Of a stretch of DNA of 20,000 nucleotides, positions 1 through 19,805 are shown one piece after another. A program made the position numbers and the translations under genes. The notes below the pieces were generated by a model that was not told the DNA's origin, ran no database searches, and was given only the letters and a program-made list of their open reading frames with translations. Every line of letters starts with the position of its first letter. The stretch's first letter is position 1. The stretch comes from an uncultured virus (IMG/VR IMGVR_UViG_3300005201_000009) (taxonomy: Duplodnaviria > Heunggongvirae > Uroviricota > Caudoviricetes): the IMG/VR virus record IMGVR_UViG_3300005201_000009; one strand, 5' to 3'.

Positions 1-587
1 CTGCCGCCGTATAAAAGGCTTTGTACCAGCCCTTCGGCGTTCCTGCCGGCCAACCCGTTCTGCAACATATCGTCACGTATAATATCAAGCTGTTTCGGCT
101 CCAGCCGGGGATTGCGTATGCGCATCCCGTTCAGCAGAGGAGATTTGCCTTTTTTATTGATAATGGTTTCAGAAAGCCCTTTTTGGCTGTAAATGGCCGC
201 CGCTTCCCACGGGCTGATGTACAGGTTGGGCGTTACCACGTTCATTGTTGACGGATCTTGCCCCGTCACACCGCTCATGGTCGGCAGGTTAGCCATTGCG
301 TCGCGCACGGTTGCGGTAACCGGTTGCGATGTTTTCCAGTTATTAATTACGAGCGGGACGAGCTCGGCGCTTCGTTCTTGCGCGTCTTTAAGGCTGCACA
401 GCTTTATCCCGTGCCGCTGCCGCGCCGCTTTTTCCTCTGCTTCGATCAAGATATTGATTTCTTCGTGTTTGGTGTACGGCAGCGCCTTAAAATGCACGCT
501 GTCCCTAACAGATATCTCCGTGCCTTGATAGCGCGTGGACGTGTTCGCCCGATTGATAATCCGCCAAATATTCTGCCAGAGAGACAT
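1..587 (-). CDS. Phage portal protein, DUF1073/HI1409-like (5' part; runs off the window)
   Basis: Not in the ORF track because it has no stop in the window. ATG at 587 overlaps the upstream stop (TAATG). Hand translation gives MSLWQNIWRII...AAIYSQKGLSETIINKKAK...EGLVQSLLYGG, resembling DUF1073 portal motifs. Lies downstream of terL. Confidence 0.7.
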   Translation of the reverse strand, partial: MSLWQNIWRIINRANTSTRYQGTEISVRDSVHFKALPYTKHEEINILIEAEEKAARQRHGIKLCSLKDAQERSAELVPLVINNWKTSQPVTATVRDAMANLPTMSGVTGQDPSTMNVVTPNLYISPWEAAAIYSQKGLSETIINKKGKSPLLNGMRIRNPRLEPKQLDIIRDDMLQNGLAGRNAEGLVQSLLYGG

Positions 588-1300
588 TACCGTTCCTCCC
601 GCAGCCGCGTTGCCAATACCACAATGTAACGCTCATTTTTTGCAATGCACTGTTTAACCACACCGATGCGCCACTCGTCCTTGGCTTCTGTGAATATCCC
701 TAAATACTTCTCATAGACCGATTTTTTCCGTTCGCACGTCATTTTTACTTCACGCCCAACACGATTCAACCACGCGTCAATACAAGCTATTATTTTCCCG
801 TTAATGTCATCCCACGCAGGCAGCGTACCTTCCTTGCAGTTGGTATCGTCAGAAGCATATGAAAGCGATATATATTCGTCTTTCATTGCACAAATAATAC
901 GGCTACGATAAGCATCGTAATTCTCCGGCATAAGCTCAGTCGTAAAGTGATTATTAGATACACTCTCGAAAAGCGGAAACTGTATCACCGACGAAAGCGC
1001 TACACGCGCCATCGTACATATCCTGTACTCACGAAAAATGCCGTTCATGCTTTTTCTAATGCTACCGGTAATATTACGCATATTTTTCCGGCATAAATCA
1101 TCCAAATCGCGTATTTTCTCATTCATATCGTGCATAGTGCCTTGATTATGCTGCTCTAACTTGATAGGCCCGATAGACACAATGCCCAGCCTCTTCACCA
1201 GCAGGGTGACAATTAGCGACACCGTCACCAGAATAATCACCGCCGCGCCCGACAGCGCTGCAATATTCGGCACTGTCGTCAAATCTATCTCTACCTGCAC
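587..1300 (-). CDS. Hypothetical protein with N-terminal transmembrane segment
   Basis: 237-aa ORF; GTG start directly after the upstream TAG with AGGAGG RBS; hydrophobic stretch AALSGAAVIILVTVSLIVTLLV. Confidence 0.8.
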   Translation of the reverse strand: MQVEIDLTTVPNIAALSGAAVIILVTVSLIVTLLVKRLGIVSIGPIKLEQHNQGTMHDMNEKIRDLDDLCRKNMRNITGSIRKSMNGIFREYRICTMARVALSSVIQFPLFESVSNNHFTTELMPENYDAYRSRIICAMKDEYISLSYASDDTNCKEGTLPAWDDINGKIIACIDAWLNRVGREVKMTCERKKSVYEKYLGIFTEAKDEWRIGVVKQCIAKNERYIVVLATRLREER

Positions 1301-1585
1301 CTACGGTTCCTCCTGAAACGTTCGCCGCCTACGCCCCACCATCGGCACGTCTTTACGAACGCGCGATATCTGCACCCGCTCAACGTCGGGCCGGTCTATG
1401 CCTGCAATATAGATAGCCTGCGCGTCATTGGGCGCAGCATACTCCTTCGATATACCATCCTCAAAATCAATGCGGTATATATTGCGCATAAGTACTACGC
1501 GCTCCATATGCCCAGAATCGCCCGGCTCGTCGTCAGGGCCGGAGATAATAATATCGTCGCCAGTATTGGTGTCGTTATCAGCCAT
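1301..1585 (-). CDS. Hypothetical protein (94 aa, acidic N-terminus)
   Basis: ATG at 1585 lies 5 nt after a predicted -10 box; abuts the next gene. Confidence 0.7.
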   Translation of the reverse strand: MADNDTNTGDDIIISGPDDEPGDSGHMERVVLMRNIYRIDFEDGISKEYAAPNDAQAIYIAGIDRPDVERVQISRVRKDVPMVGRRRRTFQEEP

Positions 1586-1590
1586 GCCGC

Positions 1591-1618
1591 ACCGTACCAC
1601 GGATTTTCAGAATGTCAA
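1591..1618 (-). promoter_or_regulatory. Sigma70-like promoter, copy 1 of a repeated packaging-gene promoter
   Basis: Minus strand TTGACA-ttctgaaaatccgtgg(16)-TACGGT with TGn extension; near-identical to 4978..5005. Confidence 0.6.
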
Positions 1619-1658
1619 GTGTTTTGGGAACGAATTATTTATTTTTAGACAGAAGAAG

Positions 1659-4247
1659 TCAGGGTGCCCTCTTAATGAAGGCGCCGGGGTCGATTTCAAC
1701 ATAGCCGCCGTCAAGGCGTTTAACCGATGGCGTTTTAGCCGCGTCGTCACGCAAAGACGCCCTTTTATCCGCGATGAGCTTACGTATATCGGCAAAGTCG
1801 GGGTGCGTGGCCACAATATGTACTGCGGCGTAGCGCGCACCGTCCAAGGTGTGAATAGGACTGCTTTTACCTACTCCTTTTGGGATTTTGTTGTCCTTGT
1901 CCCGCATAGCAAGATTAAGTGCCTCGGCAACGTCTTTGGCAATTTTACAAACTATGAACCGACTCAGATAGCATAACTTGCTGACCAAGAAACACGAATC
2001 CTCTACCAGCGGGCTTTTTTTCTTGTAAATAATCTTAATATTGTACCGACGCAACTCTTGCGCCATAGACGGGAATGTGTCCTTTATAGTCACATCCGGC
2101 AGCCATTTGATTTCCTGCTCGGGAAAGTCGTGCCGCACAACACTCGCCGCGTCGTCGAGACTGGGGAAGTCATAGTGTTTTATGCAGTATATCACACCGC
2201 CGCGCACGACGTACGCAGAGCCGCGATTATAGCCGGTATTCACATCCTGCGCCCAATAAACTACCTCATCAGGCCTTAATTTAATATCCAAATCATAACC
2301 GACGTAATTGCGCGCCCAATCAAACCCCGGGATAACCCGCCCCTTGGCAATCGATAGAAACTCGCCGTGCATGAACACCTCGCGCTCCTCGGGGGTGTAC
2401 ATTTTGTACATGTCTTCGATGAGACTTTTTGGTAAAAACGGGTTGTGCTCAGTCCACCCTCTAATAAGAACGAACGCGATACCCGTCTTCTTAAAATGAC
2501 AGTATACCGCGTATAGCCCCTTCTGGCCTTGTGATGTGCTCGCAAAACAATTATGGACTAGAAACTTGTTTGTAAAAAACTCGTGCTCGTCTTCAACAGT
2601 TATATCATACACGGACTCTAATTTTCGCAGCGCGTGTAGGGGAACAAGTTTTTGCATGCCTTCTTTTACGTGTCCTAAAAGCTTTTCCACAAATGATGCA
2701 CGCTCTATCCTCAAAAAACTTTCTTCCAAACCCAGGTTTATCAATTGTTCTAATCTTATCACGGCATCTCTGAGAGCAGAAGTGAGACGGCAATTTTGAT
2801 ATATATTTTGTTTTACAAACAAAGCACTCACATTCGTAGTGTCCCGCACCTCTTTCTCTGCTTTTTTCACGAGCGGCTTCTTTAGCCTGCCTGTTCCTAC
2901 GAAGCCTTCTACAAGTTTCACACCTAACACGCTGCTCCGCGCCTGTCGTAAAAACAGCCCTACAATCGACACAAACCTTCCTAATCGAGACTTTGTTCCA
3001 AACACCTGTATAGGTTCCTTGACTTCGCTTTTTGTCGCGTTCTTTACACTGGTTTTTACGTCTGACTGTCTGGCATCTATCACACCTAATCTTGTTTTTT
3101 CCGTCTGTGATAACCATTTCTCCACAATCAACACAAGGTCTATAGTAAAAGCTCTGTTTATTTCCTCCGTGATATACGTTGTGTTGGTGCTCTGTAACGC
3201 AGTCCAAGTTTTCAATAGTGTTATTAGCTGTGTTAAAATCTTTATGGTGTATAACCATTCCTGCTGAAACCGCCCCGTGAACGCTTTCCCATACAGCCAC
3301 ATGCAGTGCCTTAGATCTTTCACCCTTAGACGCAATAGACCTGTAATATCCTTGAGGCTTTTTAGGGTTGTGTTGCCAATAGTATCTAACCCCATTAAAA
3401 GCAACAGAGCTTCGTTTGTCTTTTTCAAACAATTTTGTATCTTTTGCCACTGCTTTACTCTCCGTAATGAAATTGATAATAAATGCTCATTGTTCTTTAT
3501 CGTTCCAACTTCTTGCCAATCTTTTATGCTCTCATTCCACACTGTGTGATCTGGTGTTAAGGGAACGCCGTGAACACGAACTATCTCTCGATACCCTGTG
3601 TTGTACTTACCGATAATCCTTCGCCATCCGCGTCGAGTAAGCACAAAATCCCCAACACTAATGTCTACTATGCGGCATAAAAAAGGATCGGTCAACCCGT
3701 ATATACGTTTTACATCTACTTTTCTACATATAATCTTTGCATTCCCTCCCAGGCAAGTGCACGGCCCCCGCTCACCAGGTATCACCTGCCGGCAGCGCTC
3801 GTTTAGCGCTTTGGTCGCTTCCAGCATTTTATCCGTCGTAAGCTCGTCCGCTTCCTCGACGTAAATCTTATGCACATCCAGCCCGAATATCTCGCCGGGG
3901 TTCTCCAACGGCTGCAACAGCACCGTCACCGTGCCGATAGTGAAGTAGTTGAATTTCTTATTCTCGATATACGGAGTCTTGCTGTCGTCCAAATACTGCC
4001 GGAAATATATTAAAAACGTCTTTTCCAAGTGGCTGAGCGTGATGCCGCAAACCATGAGACGCACGTAGTCACCGGCACGGTCTTTCTTTCCTTGAAGCCT
4101 TTTTACATCGTACAGCACATGTAAGACGTTGGCGCGCGTTTTACCTGCCCCATAACCGCAACAAAGGAAGAACCACTTTACTTTATGAAATAAAGACGGC
4201 GCTTGCATATAATAACTTTGGTGTGGTAAAACGATCGCTCTTTTCAC
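1659..4247 (-). CDS. terL: Terminase large subunit, intein-containing
   Basis: Walker A CGYGAGKT, Walker B IYVEEAD, coupling-motif region FASTSQG, nuclease motifs WAQDVN and HTLDGARYA. GTG at 4247 is 6 nt from AAGGAGG, whereas the track's TTG at 4253 abuts the RBS. Confidence 0.92.
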   Translation of the reverse strand: MKRAIVLPHQSYYMQAPSLFHKVKWFFLCCGYGAGKTRANVLHVLYDVKRLQGKKDRAGDYVRLMVCGITLSHLEKTFLIYFRQYLDDSKTPYIENKKFNYFTIGTVTVLLQPLENPGEIFGLDVHKIYVEEADELTTDKMLEATKALNERCRQVIPGERGPCTCLGGNAKIICRKVDVKRIYGLTDPFLCRIVDISVGDFVLTRRGWRRIIGKYNTGYREIVRVHGVPLTPDHTVWNESIKDWQEVGTIKNNEHLLSISLRRVKQWQKIQNCLKKTNEALLLLMGLDTIGNTTLKSLKDITGLLRLRVKDLRHCMWLYGKAFTGRFQQEWLYTIKILTQLITLLKTWTALQSTNTTYITEEINRAFTIDLVLIVEKWLSQTEKTRLGVIDARQSDVKTSVKNATKSEVKEPIQVFGTKSRLGRFVSIVGLFLRQARSSVLGVKLVEGFVGTGRLKKPLVKKAEKEVRDTTNVSALFVKQNIYQNCRLTSALRDAVIRLEQLINLGLEESFLRIERASFVEKLLGHVKEGMQKLVPLHALRKLESVYDITVEDEHEFFTNKFLVHNCFASTSQGQKGLYAVYCHFKKTGIAFVLIRGWTEHNPFLPKSLIEDMYKMYTPEEREVFMHGEFLSIAKGRVIPGFDWARNYVGYDLDIKLRPDEVVYWAQDVNTGYNRGSAYVVRGGVIYCIKHYDFPSLDDAASVVRHDFPEQEIKWLPDVTIKDTFPSMAQELRRYNIKIIYKKKSPLVEDSCFLVSKLCYLSRFIVCKIAKDVAEALNLAMRDKDNKIPKGVGKSSPIHTLDGARYAAVHIVATHPDFADIRKLIADKRASLRDDAAKTPSVKRLDGGYVEIDPGAFIKRAP
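2550..3755 (-). mobile_element. Intein (402 aa) in terL
   Basis: N-terminal block A CLGGNAKI after extein GPCT; block B LTPDHTVW; block F VYDITVEDEHEFF; block G LVHN followed by Cys+1 (CFAS). Removal restores GPCT|CFASTSQG. Confidence 0.93.
2605..3450 (-). CDS. HNH homing endonuclease with C-terminal Cys-x2-Cys zinc-finger repeats, in an alternative frame inside the intein
   Basis: 281-aa ORF with LHVAVWESVHG...IHHKDFNTANNTIENLDCVTEHQHNVYH (HNH_3-type) and several CxxC pairs; own GGAG RBS before GTG at 3450; frame differs from terL. Confidence 0.88.
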   Translation of the reverse strand: MAKDTKLFEKDKRSSVAFNGVRYYWQHNPKKPQGYYRSIASKGERSKALHVAVWESVHGAVSAGMVIHHKDFNTANNTIENLDCVTEHQHNVYHGGNKQSFYYRPCVDCGEMVITDGKNKIRCDRCQTVRRKNQCKERDKKRSQGTYTGVWNKVSIRKVCVDCRAVFTTGAEQRVRCETCRRLRRNRQAKEAAREKSRERGAGHYECECFVCKTKYISKLPSHFCSQRCRDKIRTIDKPGFGRKFFEDRACIICGKAFRTRKRRHAKTCSPTRAAKIRVRV

Positions 4248-4278
4248 GATCAACCTCCTTTGCGCTTAGGCACTGGAA

Positions 4279-5164: not shown

Positions 5165-6682
5165 TCACGAAGCCTTCTCCTCCGGCTTAACGTACGGCCC
5201 GAAGTCCCAGCGCTCGCACCCAATAAATAGGTCCTCGTCGTTTTTGAGTGCTGTAATCGTACGCATTATACCGTAAATCCTTATCTGCTCATAGACTCGG
5301 TGTATCGCGGGACTGCTAAACGGCCAGTGCGCCGGCTCCGGCGGAAACGGATCTTCGTATTCGGGATCGTCGAACAGGCTACCGTTATACGGATTTCCAT
5401 CGTACGGCAAAGTGGGCAGCAAGCGCCACTCGTCGCGCCCCCTGGTCGGGCACGTGGTGGTAGGCGCGTTTGCCGGACCGAAAGGCGGCCTGCCTTCATA
5501 CATCTCCAAAATTTCCTCTTGTATCCTGTCGAGATCTTTTTCACTCAAACTGCCGTCCTCGTTTTCACGCGCCTTATACAGCACGTCAAGGTTCTCCGAC
5601 CATTGCATGTACTCCTCCCGCACAAATTTAAGCGCGTCAAGCGAGTCTTTTACCGGGCGTCCAAGCTCTGCGGCAAACTCCTTTACGTAGTCGATAAACT
5701 CCCATATCTCCTTCTTCTCCTCGTACTTCGCGCGATCCGCCAAAGCCTTCTCGCGCTTCGCCTGCTGCGCCCGCTCCTTCGCCTCGGCGCGCACCTTTGC
5801 TTTCTCCGCGTTTCTCCGCAGCAACACTGCCGCCGTGTCCGTCTCGTCGTCGTCCGACGGCACTTGCGGCTTAGCGGGGCTCCTGTCCTCAATCATGCCG
5901 GTCTTAGGGCCTTCCAAGAATTTCTGGTTGGCGTTCGCCATTATCATCGACGATTTCCACTTGCGGTAGTCGTCGAACCTTATTTTTTCGCGGCGTCCGA
6001 ATCTGCCTAACAGCGGCATAAACTCCTTTTCCAGCGAATCCGTTATGTACGGCGACAGCACGTTATATTTATCCAAACTCGCCGGCGCGATGCGCAGGAA
6101 CTCGCCGTTGGCGTCGTAAATGACCAGAAACCGTTTGCGCCCGTTTACGCGATCCCACAGCGCGTACACCCTCCCACCGTCCTCCTTTTCAGTGTAAATC
6201 CTCTCCGTAATTTTCGGTATGCCAATAATACCCGACTCAGGGAACGCCTCGTGCATGCCGCTGATGCCCAGGTTTTCGATATTCTGCACGTCTTCCTTGC
6301 TCATTATCACATAGCCTTCCTGCTGCAAGCGCTCGGCGAACATCTGGCGGTAACGGGCGTCGATGAGCTCAGGGGTGTTCCACGCCTTTTCGATTTTTAG
6401 CAGGTACTGTGTTATTTGCCTGCCTTTCTCATTCCGTTCACTTGCAGCCAGTAACTTAGCCCTGTCCACTGCGAGCAAGTAGTCTTTTTCTGGCCTTCCT
6501 ACCTCACCGGTACTTTCCGTAGACGCTTCAAAGAAATCGTCTCCCTCAACAAATTCGTACTCCTCTACGCGAATACTAAACCACTTCCTAAACTCCGTCT
6601 TAACCCCAAGCGCTTCATGCAGTCCACGGGCGCTCACTAGCTGTTTATTGTCCTGTGCAACAACCTTAATCAATGCATCCAT
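5165..6682 (-). CDS. AntA/AntB-family antirepressor with long C-terminal extension
   Basis: N-terminus VSARGLHEALGVKTEFRKWF...FVEGDDF...KDYLLAVDRAK...NEKGRQITQYLLKIEKAWNTPE is typical of AntA/AntB. ATG at 6682 has an AGGGAG RBS; coiled-coil region further on. Confidence 0.85.
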   Translation of the reverse strand: MDALIKVVAQDNKQLVSARGLHEALGVKTEFRKWFSIRVEEYEFVEGDDFFEASTESTGEVGRPEKDYLLAVDRAKLLAASERNEKGRQITQYLLKIEKAWNTPELIDARYRQMFAERLQQEGYVIMSKEDVQNIENLGISGMHEAFPESGIIGIPKITERIYTEKEDGGRVYALWDRVNGRKRFLVIYDANGEFLRIAPASLDKYNVLSPYITDSLEKEFMPLLGRFGRREKIRFDDYRKWKSSMIMANANQKFLEGPKTGMIEDRSPAKPQVPSDDDETDTAAVLLRRNAEKAKVRAEAKERAQQAKREKALADRAKYEEKKEIWEFIDYVKEFAAELGRPVKDSLDALKFVREEYMQWSENLDVLYKARENEDGSLSEKDLDRIQEEILEMYEGRPPFGPANAPTTTCPTRGRDEWRLLPTLPYDGNPYNGSLFDDPEYEDPFPPEPAHWPFSSPAIHRVYEQIRIYGIMRTITALKNDEDLFIGCERWDFGPYVKPEEKAS

Positions 6683-6749
6683 AATTCTTCTCCCTAATTG
6701 TTTGTAATTTTGCGGCACAACGTACCGCAGTGAAATCGTGCGGGCATAG

Positions 6750-17801: not shown

Positions 17802-18343
17802 CACTATCGCCCGGCGTCGAGTTCGACGAACAAAAACACGAGTATTGGTACAATGGCAAGCAGCTCTCCGGCATCACCGGGCTGATAAATAAAAAACTCC
17901 GGCTGAAAATGCCGCAGGAGTTTCTCGAGGAGCATCAGGAAGAAGGCATCCACGTCCACAAGGCGATACAGAAGTGGATTGAGACCGGCGACTCAGGGAG
18001 CGTGCATCCGGGGGTGCGGTGGCTGACGGGGGAGTTCCGGGGGCACTACCCCAACGGGCAGATATATTCCGAGGTTTTGGTGTCTGATTTTGACCGGTAC
18101 GCGTCGGCGATAGACATCGTGCTGGCGATGGGCGACGGACTGACTATTTTTGACATTAAAAAAGGCGTCTTCAAAAGGGATTACGTAACGTGGCAACTTT
18201 CGATTTATAAGTATTTTGCAGAAAAGGTCGGGAAGCGCGTGGTTGACTGTGTGTGCCTCTGCCTGCGGGACAAGGAGTTCTACCCGATATTCCCGAAACC
18301 GGCAGAAGACGTGGAGAAACTGCTGTATGGGGCTACTGTTTAA
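17798..18343 (+). CDS. PD-(D/E)XK nuclease (phage exonuclease, Cas4-like fold)
   Basis: FDEQKHEY...SGIT...GIHVHKAI...SE...AIDIV...IFDIK...WQLSIY. Confidence 0.85.
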   Translation: MTLSPGVEFDEQKHEYWYNGKQLSGITGLINKKLRLKMPQEFLEEHQEEGIHVHKAIQKWIETGDSGSVHPGVRWLTGEFRGHYPNGQIYSEVLVSDFDRYASAIDIVLAMGDGLTIFDIKKGVFKRDYVTWQLSIYKYFAEKVGKRVVDCVCLCLRDKEFYPIFPKPAEDVEKLLYGATV

Positions 18344-19805
18344 ACACCCACTTATCCAATATCCTGTAAACTTCGCGGGCCTTCTTGAGCAGTAGCGCCT
18401 GGCCTACTTTGTCTTTGCGGTTGTAGCGTTTTGCTACGTCTGACGAAACCTTGTGGCCCATGAAGTATTCTTCAACGTCGCCTAAGCCGTTCGCGTTCAT
18501 CAATGTCTTCCAAAAGTGGCGGCCGGAGTAGAAGGTTATGTTTTCTTTTTTGATGTATGCGTCCACTTCATCCAGCCTAATGCCGAGCTTCGTGTGCAGC
18601 TTTTCGCACAATACGCGCTTTGCGCTCAAGTATACACGGGAATGTTTAACCGTAAATAAACAGTCGTCCTCGCGGGCGCCTGTTTTTCTGATGTACGCCA
18701 TTATTTTTTCATATGCAAACGGGTGCAGCGGTACAATACGGATGCCATTCTCGCTCTTGCTTGCCGGTATATCGATGAAGTAACAATCCTTTATCTTGAT
18801 AATGTCCTTTGTCTGCACGCGTTCAATTTCGCTGTTGCGCATATCGGTAGTGTAGATAAGCATATCGAGGAAGTACTCAAGTTCTTCGCGCCATTTACGG
18901 TTGAAGACGCCGTTTAATTTATCCAGCTCATAACAGCCGCGCGGTTTGCAATCAACTACTTTTAGTCTGGTTATCTTATCAAAGACGTTTTCGCTAATGA
19001 TACCGTTCATTACCATGTGATCGAAAATAGTGCTTACGCCGCTGAAATGCTGGTTTACCGTTTGAGCCTTGCTGCCGCTGCCGAGTTCGTGGGTTTGTAG
19101 CTTGGCGAGGAGCGGCGGGGTGATGCCGTCAAAATCGAATATGCCGTTTTTGCGCAGGAATGGTATAAAAACTTTACAAATCCATCTATGTGACGCCGCC
19201 CGCGCGCGCGGGTTAACATTTCTCCCGCGTTTTTGAGCTTCGTCAAAGTATGCGGATCCTTCCTTGTAGTAATTGCTCAGAATAGAGAACATTTTTTGAT
19301 CGGTGCTGTATAATTGTTTTTTCGCATAATAATCGTGCAGTATTCTTTCTCTGTTCTCTACGGCAAACTGTTCGGCAGCTTCGCGGTTGTTGGTGTGCGT
19401 ATTCCATCGAGAGTGTATAAGTTTTCCCTTTTCAATATAGCGGACGTAGTATAGAAAGCCGTATTTTTTACTGGAGACTTTGGCAAGGTTGTAGCCTTTT
19501 GCTTTTCGTTTCTCTGCGAACTGACCGTTGAGCGCTTTTAGTGATTGAATGGTGTCAGAGAATGTTGATTTATAGTACGAGCGCAGACTGTCAAGGTATT
19601 TATTGCTTTCAAGATTAATTTGCGGTCTTGTTTGTAACCACTCAGAAATAAGGTAGGCGTTAAAGCGAATCTCGTCGCCGTGTTGACCATGTACGTAAGT
19701 ATGTGGTATTATGCCGTTACGCACTAATACGTCAAGCGTTTGTTGATCTATACTGAGAGCGTATGCGGCTTGGCTAGGCGTTAAAAAAGGCGACAATGTA
19801 CTCAT
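18333..19805 (-). CDS. Tyrosine recombinase/integrase with N-terminal excisionase-like HTH
   Basis: Catalytic motifs TTDMRNSE, SKSENG, FYSGRH, MGH, AKRYN; N-terminal LTPSQAAYALSIDQQTL...GIIP...IRF. Confidence 0.9.
   Translation of the reverse strand: MSTLSPFLTPSQAAYALSIDQQTLDVLVRNGIIPHTYVHGQHGDEIRFNAYLISEWLQTRPQINLESNKYLDSLRSYYKSTFSDTIQSLKALNGQFAEKRKAKGYNLAKVSSKKYGFLYYVRYIEKGKLIHSRWNTHTNNREAAEQFAVENRERILHDYYAKKQLYSTDQKMFSILSNYYKEGSAYFDEAQKRGRNVNPRARAASHRWICKVFIPFLRKNGIFDFDGITPPLLAKLQTHELGSGSKAQTVNQHFSGVSTIFDHMVMNGIISENVFDKITRLKVVDCKPRGCYELDKLNGVFNRKWREELEYFLDMLIYTTDMRNSEIERVQTKDIIKIKDCYFIDIPASKSENGIRIVPLHPFAYEKIMAYIRKTGAREDDCLFTVKHSRVYLSAKRVLCEKLHTKLGIRLDEVDAYIKKENITFYSGRHFWKTLMNANGLGDVEEYFMGHKVSSDVAKRYNRKDKVGQALLLKKAREVYRILDKWVFKQ

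Follow-up and report, generated by a model that had tools for sequence, protein, structure and literature searches.

The large terminase subunit gene (terL) of an uncultured virus of the Caudoviricetes, contained in a 20,000-nucleotide stretch of the IMG/VR record IMGVR_UViG_3300005201_000009 (this whole stretch is hereafter called the window), is interrupted by an in-frame intein of 402 residues, the centre of which is overprinted, on the same strand and in another frame, by a complete HNH endonuclease gene. The double coding is real and selected, and pairs of related copies show that the splicing ends are constrained in the intein frame and the overlap in the HNH frame. We consider it quite probable, judging from the sequence comparisons, that the insert is a mobile terL intein whose homing nuclease is an independent gene placed in the +2 frame over the central linker, such that TerL would be spliced while the HNH protein would be translated separately and would drive homing. 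The coordinates of all features are collected in Table 1.

Intein and overprinted gene

The terL gene and the intein form one unbroken open reading frame (ORF) of 864 codons, the product of which matches phrog_2 'terminase large subunit' with an E value of 4.2e-16. The extein parts are 62-76% identical to intein-less TerL proteins of 476-483 aa and to those of the viral contigs L005-L007; taken together, the close intein-less relatives (L005-L007, P0003, P0004 and P0006) have a length of 456-483 aa. The insert-free alleles are continuous at the insertion site, where they read ...ER(S/A)(P/G)C(L/I)|CF(A/G)STSQG, and the window has 402 residues added at that point. The +1 Cys is native in all five close intein-less alleles (L005, L006, L007, P0003 and P0006). 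The G+C content of the insert is 0.42 versus 0.49 in the remainder of terL. A group I intron was set aside as an explanation, as the insert is bounded in frame by intein blocks.

An earlier note, made from the sequence alone, had described a 402-aa intein frame with splicing blocks A, B, F and G and with a centre lacking an endonuclease motif, and both statements are borne out. The frame is present at 2550..3755, and in the intein alignment A4, which comprises the window, five related inteins and one mini-intein, the residues C1, T67, H70, D384, H391 and N402 are invariant; with the exception of an isolated L215, invariant columns are confined to the first 70 and the last 21 residues. The residues and blocks expected of a class 1 intein are present, namely Cys1, block B (LTPDH), blocks F and G, the terminal His-Asn and the +1 Cys, with block F reading VYDITVEDEHEF and the C-terminal end of the intein reading ...FLVHN|C. 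As for the centre, a hidden Markov model search of the intein frame against Pfam at E <= 0.1 returned Intein_splicing alone and no endonuclease family, and in a structural model built from the alignment the confidence score (pLDDT, from predicted local distance difference test) is 67-90 for residues 1-70, 78-85 for residues 379-402, and 22-50 between them. When the modelled ends were compared with 48,161 chains using VIA-align, the top 27 rows were all inteins or Hint domains (Z from 11.4 to 7.9), the best match being the gp41-1 intein 6riz (Z 11.4, root-mean-square deviation (rmsd) 3.3, 99 aligned); the intein ends are predicted by this model to form a Hint fold.

The HNH ORF starts 803 nt from the terL start, i.e. 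in frame +2. It conforms to what the same note had read in another minus-strand frame, an HNH protein with repeated CxxC motifs, a ribosome-binding site and a GTG start: Pfam assigns the shifted frame to HNH_3 (47.6 bits, cut-off 24.8, E 1.2e-12), with no match to Endonuclease_7, the protein matches phrog_15471 'HNH endonuclease' with an E value of 3.6e-20, and a GGAGAG lies 7 nt upstream of the GTG. The TGA stop (2607..2605) indeed falls within the block F codons GTG TAT GAT (2612..2604; Val-Tyr-Asp). In the HNH alignment A2, which has seven sequences (window, L010, L011, L020, L025, L029 and P0001), the residues of the beta-beta-alpha-metal motif (H68, H69, N77 and H90) are invariant, and 16 columns in total are invariant versus one in the alignment A3 of the shadow frame, the intein-frame reading of the same DNA.

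The model of the HNH protein reaches a pLDDT of 85-94 in its core, and the best local structural match of this core is I-HmuI (1u3e; probability 0.96, 87 columns, rmsd 4.7, Foldseek E 0.097), which was also matched when the HNH profile was run against PDB sequences (hmmsearch, E 0.015). A Foldseek search with the whole HNH model yielded mostly eukaryotic zinc-finger arrays (E > 0.03), which were taken as a generic likeness of zinc-ribbon beads. The zinc ribbons sit after the HNH core. The last of them (window 2644..2700, minus strand) reads C..C...H...C-S-P-T-R, while the six relatives in A2 keep a fourth Cys (CSxxC or similar); it may be a Cys-Cys-His-Cys variant or a sign of early decay.

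Table 1. Features of the terL locus and of its overprinted intein; coordinates refer to the window.
Feature	Coordinates	Strand	Description
terL, large terminase subunit precursor gene	1659..4253	-	864 aa from TTG start, stop codon included; from the ORF list and phrog_2
N-extein	3756..4253	-	166 aa, C-terminal end ...ERGPCT; aligned to intein-less alleles
C-extein	1659..2549	-	296 aa plus stop codon; first residue is the +1 Cys of CFASTSQG
Intein, in frame with terL	2550..3755	-	402 aa, from Cys1 (3755) to ...FLVHN (2550), followed by Cys-Phe-Ala-Ser
N-terminal splicing part (blocks A and B; CLGGN..., ...LTPDH...)	3453..3755	-	conserved A4 columns; pLDDT 67-90 for residues 1-70
C-terminal splicing part (blocks F and G: VYDITVEDEHEFFTNKFLVHN)	2550..2612	-	HNH TGA inside the Tyr-Asp codons; pLDDT 78-85 for residues 379-402
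Stop-free intein-frame 'shadow' of the HNH gene	2607..3449	-	281 codons; without detectable family or confident fold
HNH endonuclease gene, frame +2 relative to terL/intein	2605..3450	-	281 aa, GTG start, TGA stop
Shine-Dalgarno-like GGAGAG	3458..3463	-	7 nt upstream of the HNH GTG at 3450
HNH_3 catalytic motif	3178..3312	-	HNH residues 47-91; from Pfam and alignment
Four CxxC zinc-ribbon modules	2644..3135	-	Cys 106/109/123/126, 160/163/177/180, 209/212/225/229 and 251/254/269

Double coding and selection

The terL/intein frame and the HNH frame are both open over the whole overlap, and the third frame contains 40-41 stops. The role of chance was assessed by holding the HNH protein fixed, redrawing its synonymous codons 5000 times and counting the stops that arise in the intein frame. 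With the codon usage of TerL, 9.9 stops are expected and 0 of the 5000 draws was stop-free; with uniform codon usage the values are 7.5 stops and 0.0002 of the draws, and with the HNH ORF's own codon usage 4.6 stops and 0.0068 of the draws. The number observed is 0, in agreement with the earlier reading that both frames stay open. Free-standing HNH_3-type genes, which served as controls, have 13 (L004), 4 (phage LL2), 8 (phage CL2) and 4 (phage PAE1) stops in the same relative frame. The +1 frame of the HNH gene is expected to contain 2-12 stops versus 10-40 in the other frame; being therefore the cheapest frame to keep open, it would account for the +2 offset found in all nine overprinted HNH_3 inteins compared here (see below).

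Two compensating frameshift errors, introduced by assembly or sequencing, could in principle mask an ordinary in-frame HNH intein, and the earlier note had named them as the finding that would overturn its reading. We regard such an artefact as extremely improbable: the same +2 offset recurs at eight other independently sourced loci, two finished phage genomes among them, a hidden in-frame HNH domain would leave some 5-10 stops in the terL frame where none is seen, and the HNH ORF begins at a start codon of its own and stops within block F. The recurrence of the layout and the purging of stops from the intein frame uphold the claim that the HNH is a separate gene overprinted in another frame.

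Constraint on the two frames was compared by the mismatch rate per codon position, which was used instead of the ratio of nonsynonymous to synonymous substitution rates because the copies are either near-identical (L020-L022 differ by 0-3 nt, and L025-L028 are identical) or too diverged. The two closest pairs, L010/L011 and L025/L029, were aligned as nucleotides, with neither frame favoured. In the N-terminal Hint part the highest rate is found at intein codon position 3 (0.19 versus 0.07 and 0.03 for L010/L011; 0.71 versus 0.29 and 0.29 for L025/L029), and the same holds for the C-terminal Hint part (0.50 versus 0.11 and 0.16 for L010/L011; 0.50 versus 0.05 and 0.00 for L025/L029). In the overlap the peak lies at intein position 2, which is HNH position 3 (0.44 versus 0.33 and 0.37 for L010/L011; 0.53 versus 0.41 and 0.44 for L025/L029). 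Selection on the HNH frame, on which the earlier note had made its interpretation depend, is seen for these related copies in this displacement of the peak. Among eight loci, HNH-frame identity exceeds intein-frame identity in 28 of 28 pairs, with HNH position 3 being the most variable, a count that is weakened by the non-independence of the pairs and by the use of an alignment built in the HNH frame.

A different view of the same ORF is that of a decaying relic, with the need for TerL as the sole reason for an open intein frame and with a nuclease that is no longer active or expressed. The fourth zinc ribbon without its fourth Cys would fit such a relic, as would the lack of a close relative to show recent spread, and decay of this type is predicted by the homing-cycle model (bioRxiv 10.1101/2025.01.02.630785, in the portion of the preprint drawn on here). 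We nevertheless find this explanation unlikely, as the ORF of 281 codons is intact against 40-41 stops in the third frame, every invariant catalytic residue is kept, and so are the start codon and the GGAGAG.

Relatives and insertion sites

A tblastn search of phage records with the HNH protein yielded 12 records at E <= 1e-5. Four of these, which come from Clostridium phage phiCDHM19 and Tetrasphaera phage TJE1, have the match within the annotated terL, at an offset of +2. For both phages (L001, NC_028996, phiCDHM19, 2056..2721; L002, NC_019930, TJE1, inside terL 1607..3793) GenBank annotates terL only, and neither the intein nor the HNH gene. A metagenome scan with the single HNH protein returned three distant free-standing HNH genes and nothing else.

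Scanning viral contigs with the TerL alignment gave 24 loci, nine without insert and 15 with one or two. Thirteen insertions in 12 loci, including the window, were examined, taking one representative per near-identical set (L020-L022 and L025-L028). The +2 frame is open over 675-915 nt in eight of the 13 insertions (window included), and the alternative-frame ORFs outside the window score above the HNH_3 cut-off in seven out of seven cases (29.3-71.7 bits). Four insertions, all at the Walker A site, carry an in-frame LAGLIDADG_3 domain (L012, L016, L018 and the first intein of L025), and L019, at the Walker B site, holds a 137-aa mini-intein that lacks exactly the overprinted centre. A ninth overprinted case, L003, is located in an unrelated terminase. 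The offset is +2 in all nine overprinted inteins (the window and eight others), which are spread over five sites in terL: the Walker B region, the CFASTSQG site of the window, DIN|xGYNR, the C-terminal SPIH|, and the site of L003.

The TerL family concerned (L010-L029 and P0005-P0017) is an intein hotspot: its insertion sites number five or more, a single gene can hold as many as two inteins (L025-L028, P0011 and P0015), and canonical LAGLIDADG inteins, overprinted-HNH inteins and a 137-aa mini-intein coexist in it. An open +2 stretch of 244 codons was also noticed over the GC-rich (0.63) LAGLIDADG intein at L025:3871-4603, where it is probably explained by the high GC.

The position of the HNH gene within terL allows for another function, that of a packaging accessory which helps TerL to cut DNA, as was proposed for a Brucella phage gene in the consulted section of PMC4422536. 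HNH proteins beside terminase genes are common in phages according to the same source, and in phages CL2 and PAE1 relatives of the window's HNH protein sit between terL and the portal gene. Still, the closest TerL relatives (L005-L007, P0003, P0004 and P0006) have neither intein nor HNH gene, so packaging in this family would not require it. In the terL loci examined, every overprinted HNH gene is found within an intein, with five different sites in use, as is typical of a mobile element, and the protein belongs to HNH_3 with the homing enzyme I-HmuI as its nearest solved structure. A packaging role is thus, in our estimation, quite improbable, and we retain a homing nuclease as the preferred function.

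A profile of the shadow frame was searched against 1.84 billion cluster representatives and found 180 proteins at E <= 0.001, the window's own included. The best 149 matches were sampled by a Pfam scan of 77 proteins (E <= 1e-5), in which HNH frames are inferred, since proteins only were available to it. An intein or Hint family was found in 46 of the 77, a terminase domain only in two, an N6_N4 DNA methylase domain without intein family in seven, and no family in 22; terminase domains, belonging to several terminase families, occur in 17 of the 77. The seven methylase matches (P0022, P0023, P0026, P0031, P0041, P0082 and P0083) may represent hidden frame-3 HNH insertions of the ShiLan type described below.

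Junctions, translation start and origin of the composite

The overprinted inteins have common borders where the HNH gene meets the splicing blocks. In six of eight loci the Tyr-Asp or Tyr-Asn codons of block F supply the HNH stop, the HNH start lies at an xxR-TGG junction (Lys-x-Trp in the intein frame) in four of six aligned loci, and 15-28 intein codons follow the HNH stop in nine of nine. A Shine-Dalgarno-like site with a 5/6 match to AGGAGG precedes the HNH start in six of eight loci; that of the window has a 4/6 match by a crude score.

Instead of initiating at the GTG, the HNH protein might be reached by programmed -1 ribosomal frameshifting from terL, which would produce a fusion of N-extein, Hint-N and HNH. 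With respect to terL the HNH frame does lie at -1; upstream of the GTG it stays open over 12 codons in the window, and upstream of the start in TJE1, which is without a Shine-Dalgarno-like site, over about 90 codons. This is, however, very unlikely as the route of expression: no canonical X XXY YYZ heptamer was seen by eye in the 36 nt upstream of the GTG, the aligned loci have a start codon at the conserved HNH N-terminus (MAKDK/MGKDK), preceded in most by a Shine-Dalgarno-like site, and in seven of eight loci the upstream open stretch is variable and measures only 1 to 25 codons. It is from the start codon and the Shine-Dalgarno-like site that we infer an HNH expression uncoupled from splicing.

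The shared junctions fit a composite that moves as a unit. Over nine loci, the identity matrices of Hint-N and HNH show a weak correlation in a Mantel test (Spearman 0.37, a value attained in 77 of 5000 permutations). The inteins L010:4895-5959 and L011:4876-5931 are 93% identical in their first 75 residues (Hint-N) and 51% identical in the HNH, a contrast that allows for a nuclease part that changes faster or was exchanged. Because the HNH/splicing-block junctions are common to diverged copies at different terL sites, the composite appears to have been inherited or acquired as a unit, and the HNH invasion would not have occurred in the lineage of the window. The invasion of a mini-intein by a free-standing HNH gene, as put forward in the earlier note, remains plausible as a general origin and corresponds to a published model; as an event in the history of this particular phage lineage it does not hold, given the junctions common to diverged copies.

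Going one step further, the Hint ends and the frame-3 HNH_3/zinc-ribbon gene may constitute a single old and stable mobile unit, not a short-lived intermediate of a recent invasion. We put this forward tentatively, with a little less than even confidence, since the start (4/6) and stop (6/8) junctions are shared across copies that are only 30-50% identical. If true, such a unit has moved among five or more sites of one TerL family and has also entered unrelated terminases, and the 'ShiLan-type' insertions in DNA methylases may be relatives that lost their Hint parts.

Proposed homing cycle

The cycle that we propose for the mobile terL intein has three steps, of which splicing, internal initiation, cleavage specificity and homing are all deduced from sequence features. 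In the first, ribosomes on terL would read through the whole 402-aa intein, the central 281 codons yielding a stop-free shadow that is probably unfolded, and the Hint ends (Cys1, TPDH, block F, His-Asn and the +1 Cys) would excise the insert and restore TerL at CFASTSQG. In the second, ribosomes would initiate internally on the same mRNA at GGAGAG-N7-GTG and produce the 281-aa HNH_3 nuclease with its four zinc ribbons. In the third, during a mixed infection, the nuclease would cut or nick an intein-less terL near ...PC(L/I)|CFAS, and recombinational repair would copy the intein together with the HNH gene into the cut allele. Support for the homing step comes from the sporadic distribution of the insert among close TerL relatives.

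Several observations weigh against this cycle, in addition to the limits of the 28 pairwise comparisons given above. The Intein_splicing match of the intein frame is sub-threshold (27.4 bits versus a cut-off of 35.8, E 3.4e-6), the matches of the HNH protein to I-HmuI are weak overall by both E values, and its last zinc-ribbon module is without the fourth Cys. TJE1 has no Shine-Dalgarno-like site before its HNH start, and the closest HNH matches to the window copy show 31-41% identity, no close relative having been found.

Genomic context

The terL gene is part of a minus-strand packaging module, of which the start of a portal-like gene is present at 3..587. Between terL and the portal gene (587..1600, minus strand) lie two ORFs (237 aa and 99 aa) without PHROG match; in the relative L007 the gap from terL to the start of the portal gene is 64 nt. 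The window also contains an Ant-like anti-repressor (5165..6718) and an integrase (18333..19805), and the source phage is therefore probably temperate. Between 8000 and 9500, where the minus-strand gene block meets the plus-strand block, the GC content drops to 0.36-0.38 and the sign of the GC skew flips, probably marking a divergent control region. A blastn search of the terL region against 50,697 phage records gave no match.

Significance

The window provides a well-documented case, beyond the actinobacteriophages, of a recently described layout. It offers quantitative evidence that selection keeps a 'nonsense' frame of 281 codons free of stops, thereby permitting the production and splicing of an essential protein, and that amino-acid constraint moves to the overprinted nuclease. 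For annotation, it is relevant that gene callers report terL alone, as illustrated by the HNH genes left unannotated in phiCDHM19 and TJE1; since the shadow-frame profile finds 180 cluster representatives, there are probably many hidden nuclease genes that go unnoticed. As to intein biology, junctions that are conserved and a spread over multiple sites argue that such composites can be long-lived, and splicing ends that tolerate an unrelated linker of about 280 residues may interest protein engineers.

Comparison with known systems

The arrangement is already in print, and the window is a further instance of an out-of-frame nuclease inside an intein. The earlier note had left its novelty to a literature check, which counts against it: the annotation of Brucella phage Tb contains the layout, PMC4422536 mentions it, and sister forms were described in 2025.

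In Brucella phage Tb (NC_019446) terL (gp07) is annotated with 'intein present' and contains a nested out-of-frame HNH gene (gp08), as mentioned in the 2015 paper PMC4422536. Similar to the window, phages Tb and Pr have a terL intein with a complete zinc-ribbon HNH gene on the same strand in another frame, with the terL frame open. In contrast, the Tb protein is of the classical PF01844 type with N-terminal zinc ribbons, it and the protein of the window lack significant similarity (best BLASTP E 0.032), its offset is +1 versus +2, and the host phage is different, as probably is the insertion site.

Gosselin, Arsenault and Gogarten (bioRxiv 10.1101/2025.01.02.630785) report inteins of actinobacteriophages in which an endonuclease VII-like gene occupies frame 3, and suggest that a free-standing nuclease invaded them; the out-of-frame actinobacteriophage inteins that the earlier note mentioned are thereby documented. 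These inteins share with the window a frame-3 nuclease between the splicing blocks and an in-frame centre without recognisable structure, and the terminase large subunit is among the four types of host protein listed for non-canonical inteins as a group. They differ in their nuclease, which is IPR004211 versus HNH_3 with zinc ribbons in the window. Their forms are called rare, whereas the HNH_3 form reported here occurs in Clostridium and Tetrasphaera phages and in many metagenomic phages. The preprint text, as far as it was accessible, makes no mention of an out-of-frame HNH in an intein, and its supplements may list further cases. Judged by its sequence, the window falls outside the endonuclease VII-like out-of-frame class and inside the wider kind of out-of-frame nuclease inteins. 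A 2026 preprint, in its available part, reports an out-of-frame nuclease in a cyanobacterial dnaX intein, and in the text of Kelley et al. 2016 (PMC5050341) the phrase 'out of frame' is absent.

Two further published systems resemble the window in part. The ShiLan domain is an HNH that starts with GTG and lies hidden in frame 3 of a mycobacteriophage DNA methylase without intein (Arsenault et al., Genes 2025, PMC11855218). It is like the window in its out-of-frame HNH with GTG start over a stop-free host frame and unlike it in that its insert, lacking an intein, is presumed to stay in the methylase, whereas the window's insert is flanked by Hint parts and its host gene is essential. In the fractured genes of Dassa et al. 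2009 (PMC2677866), the two halves of a split intein flank a free-standing nuclease gene; they likewise have a separate nuclease gene in the endonuclease slot of the intein, but host gene and intein are divided over two ORFs and spliced in trans, while the window has one ORF.

The canonical LAGLIDADG inteins (L012, L016, L018 and the first of L025) belong to the same TerL family and have the same Hint-type ends, but carry an in-frame LAGLIDADG_3 domain (4/4), occupy the Walker A site and have no long out-of-frame HNH ORF. I-HmuI (PDB 1U3E), which is a homing nuclease of the HNH type from a Bacillus phage intron and the best local match of the HNH core, differs from the window's protein by being encoded in a group I intron, by its different DNA-binding tail and by having no zinc ribbons. 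Set beside these systems, what is new here is the HNH_3/zinc-ribbon form inside inteins, a new terL insertion site, the conserved junctions, and a simple reason for the +2 rule.

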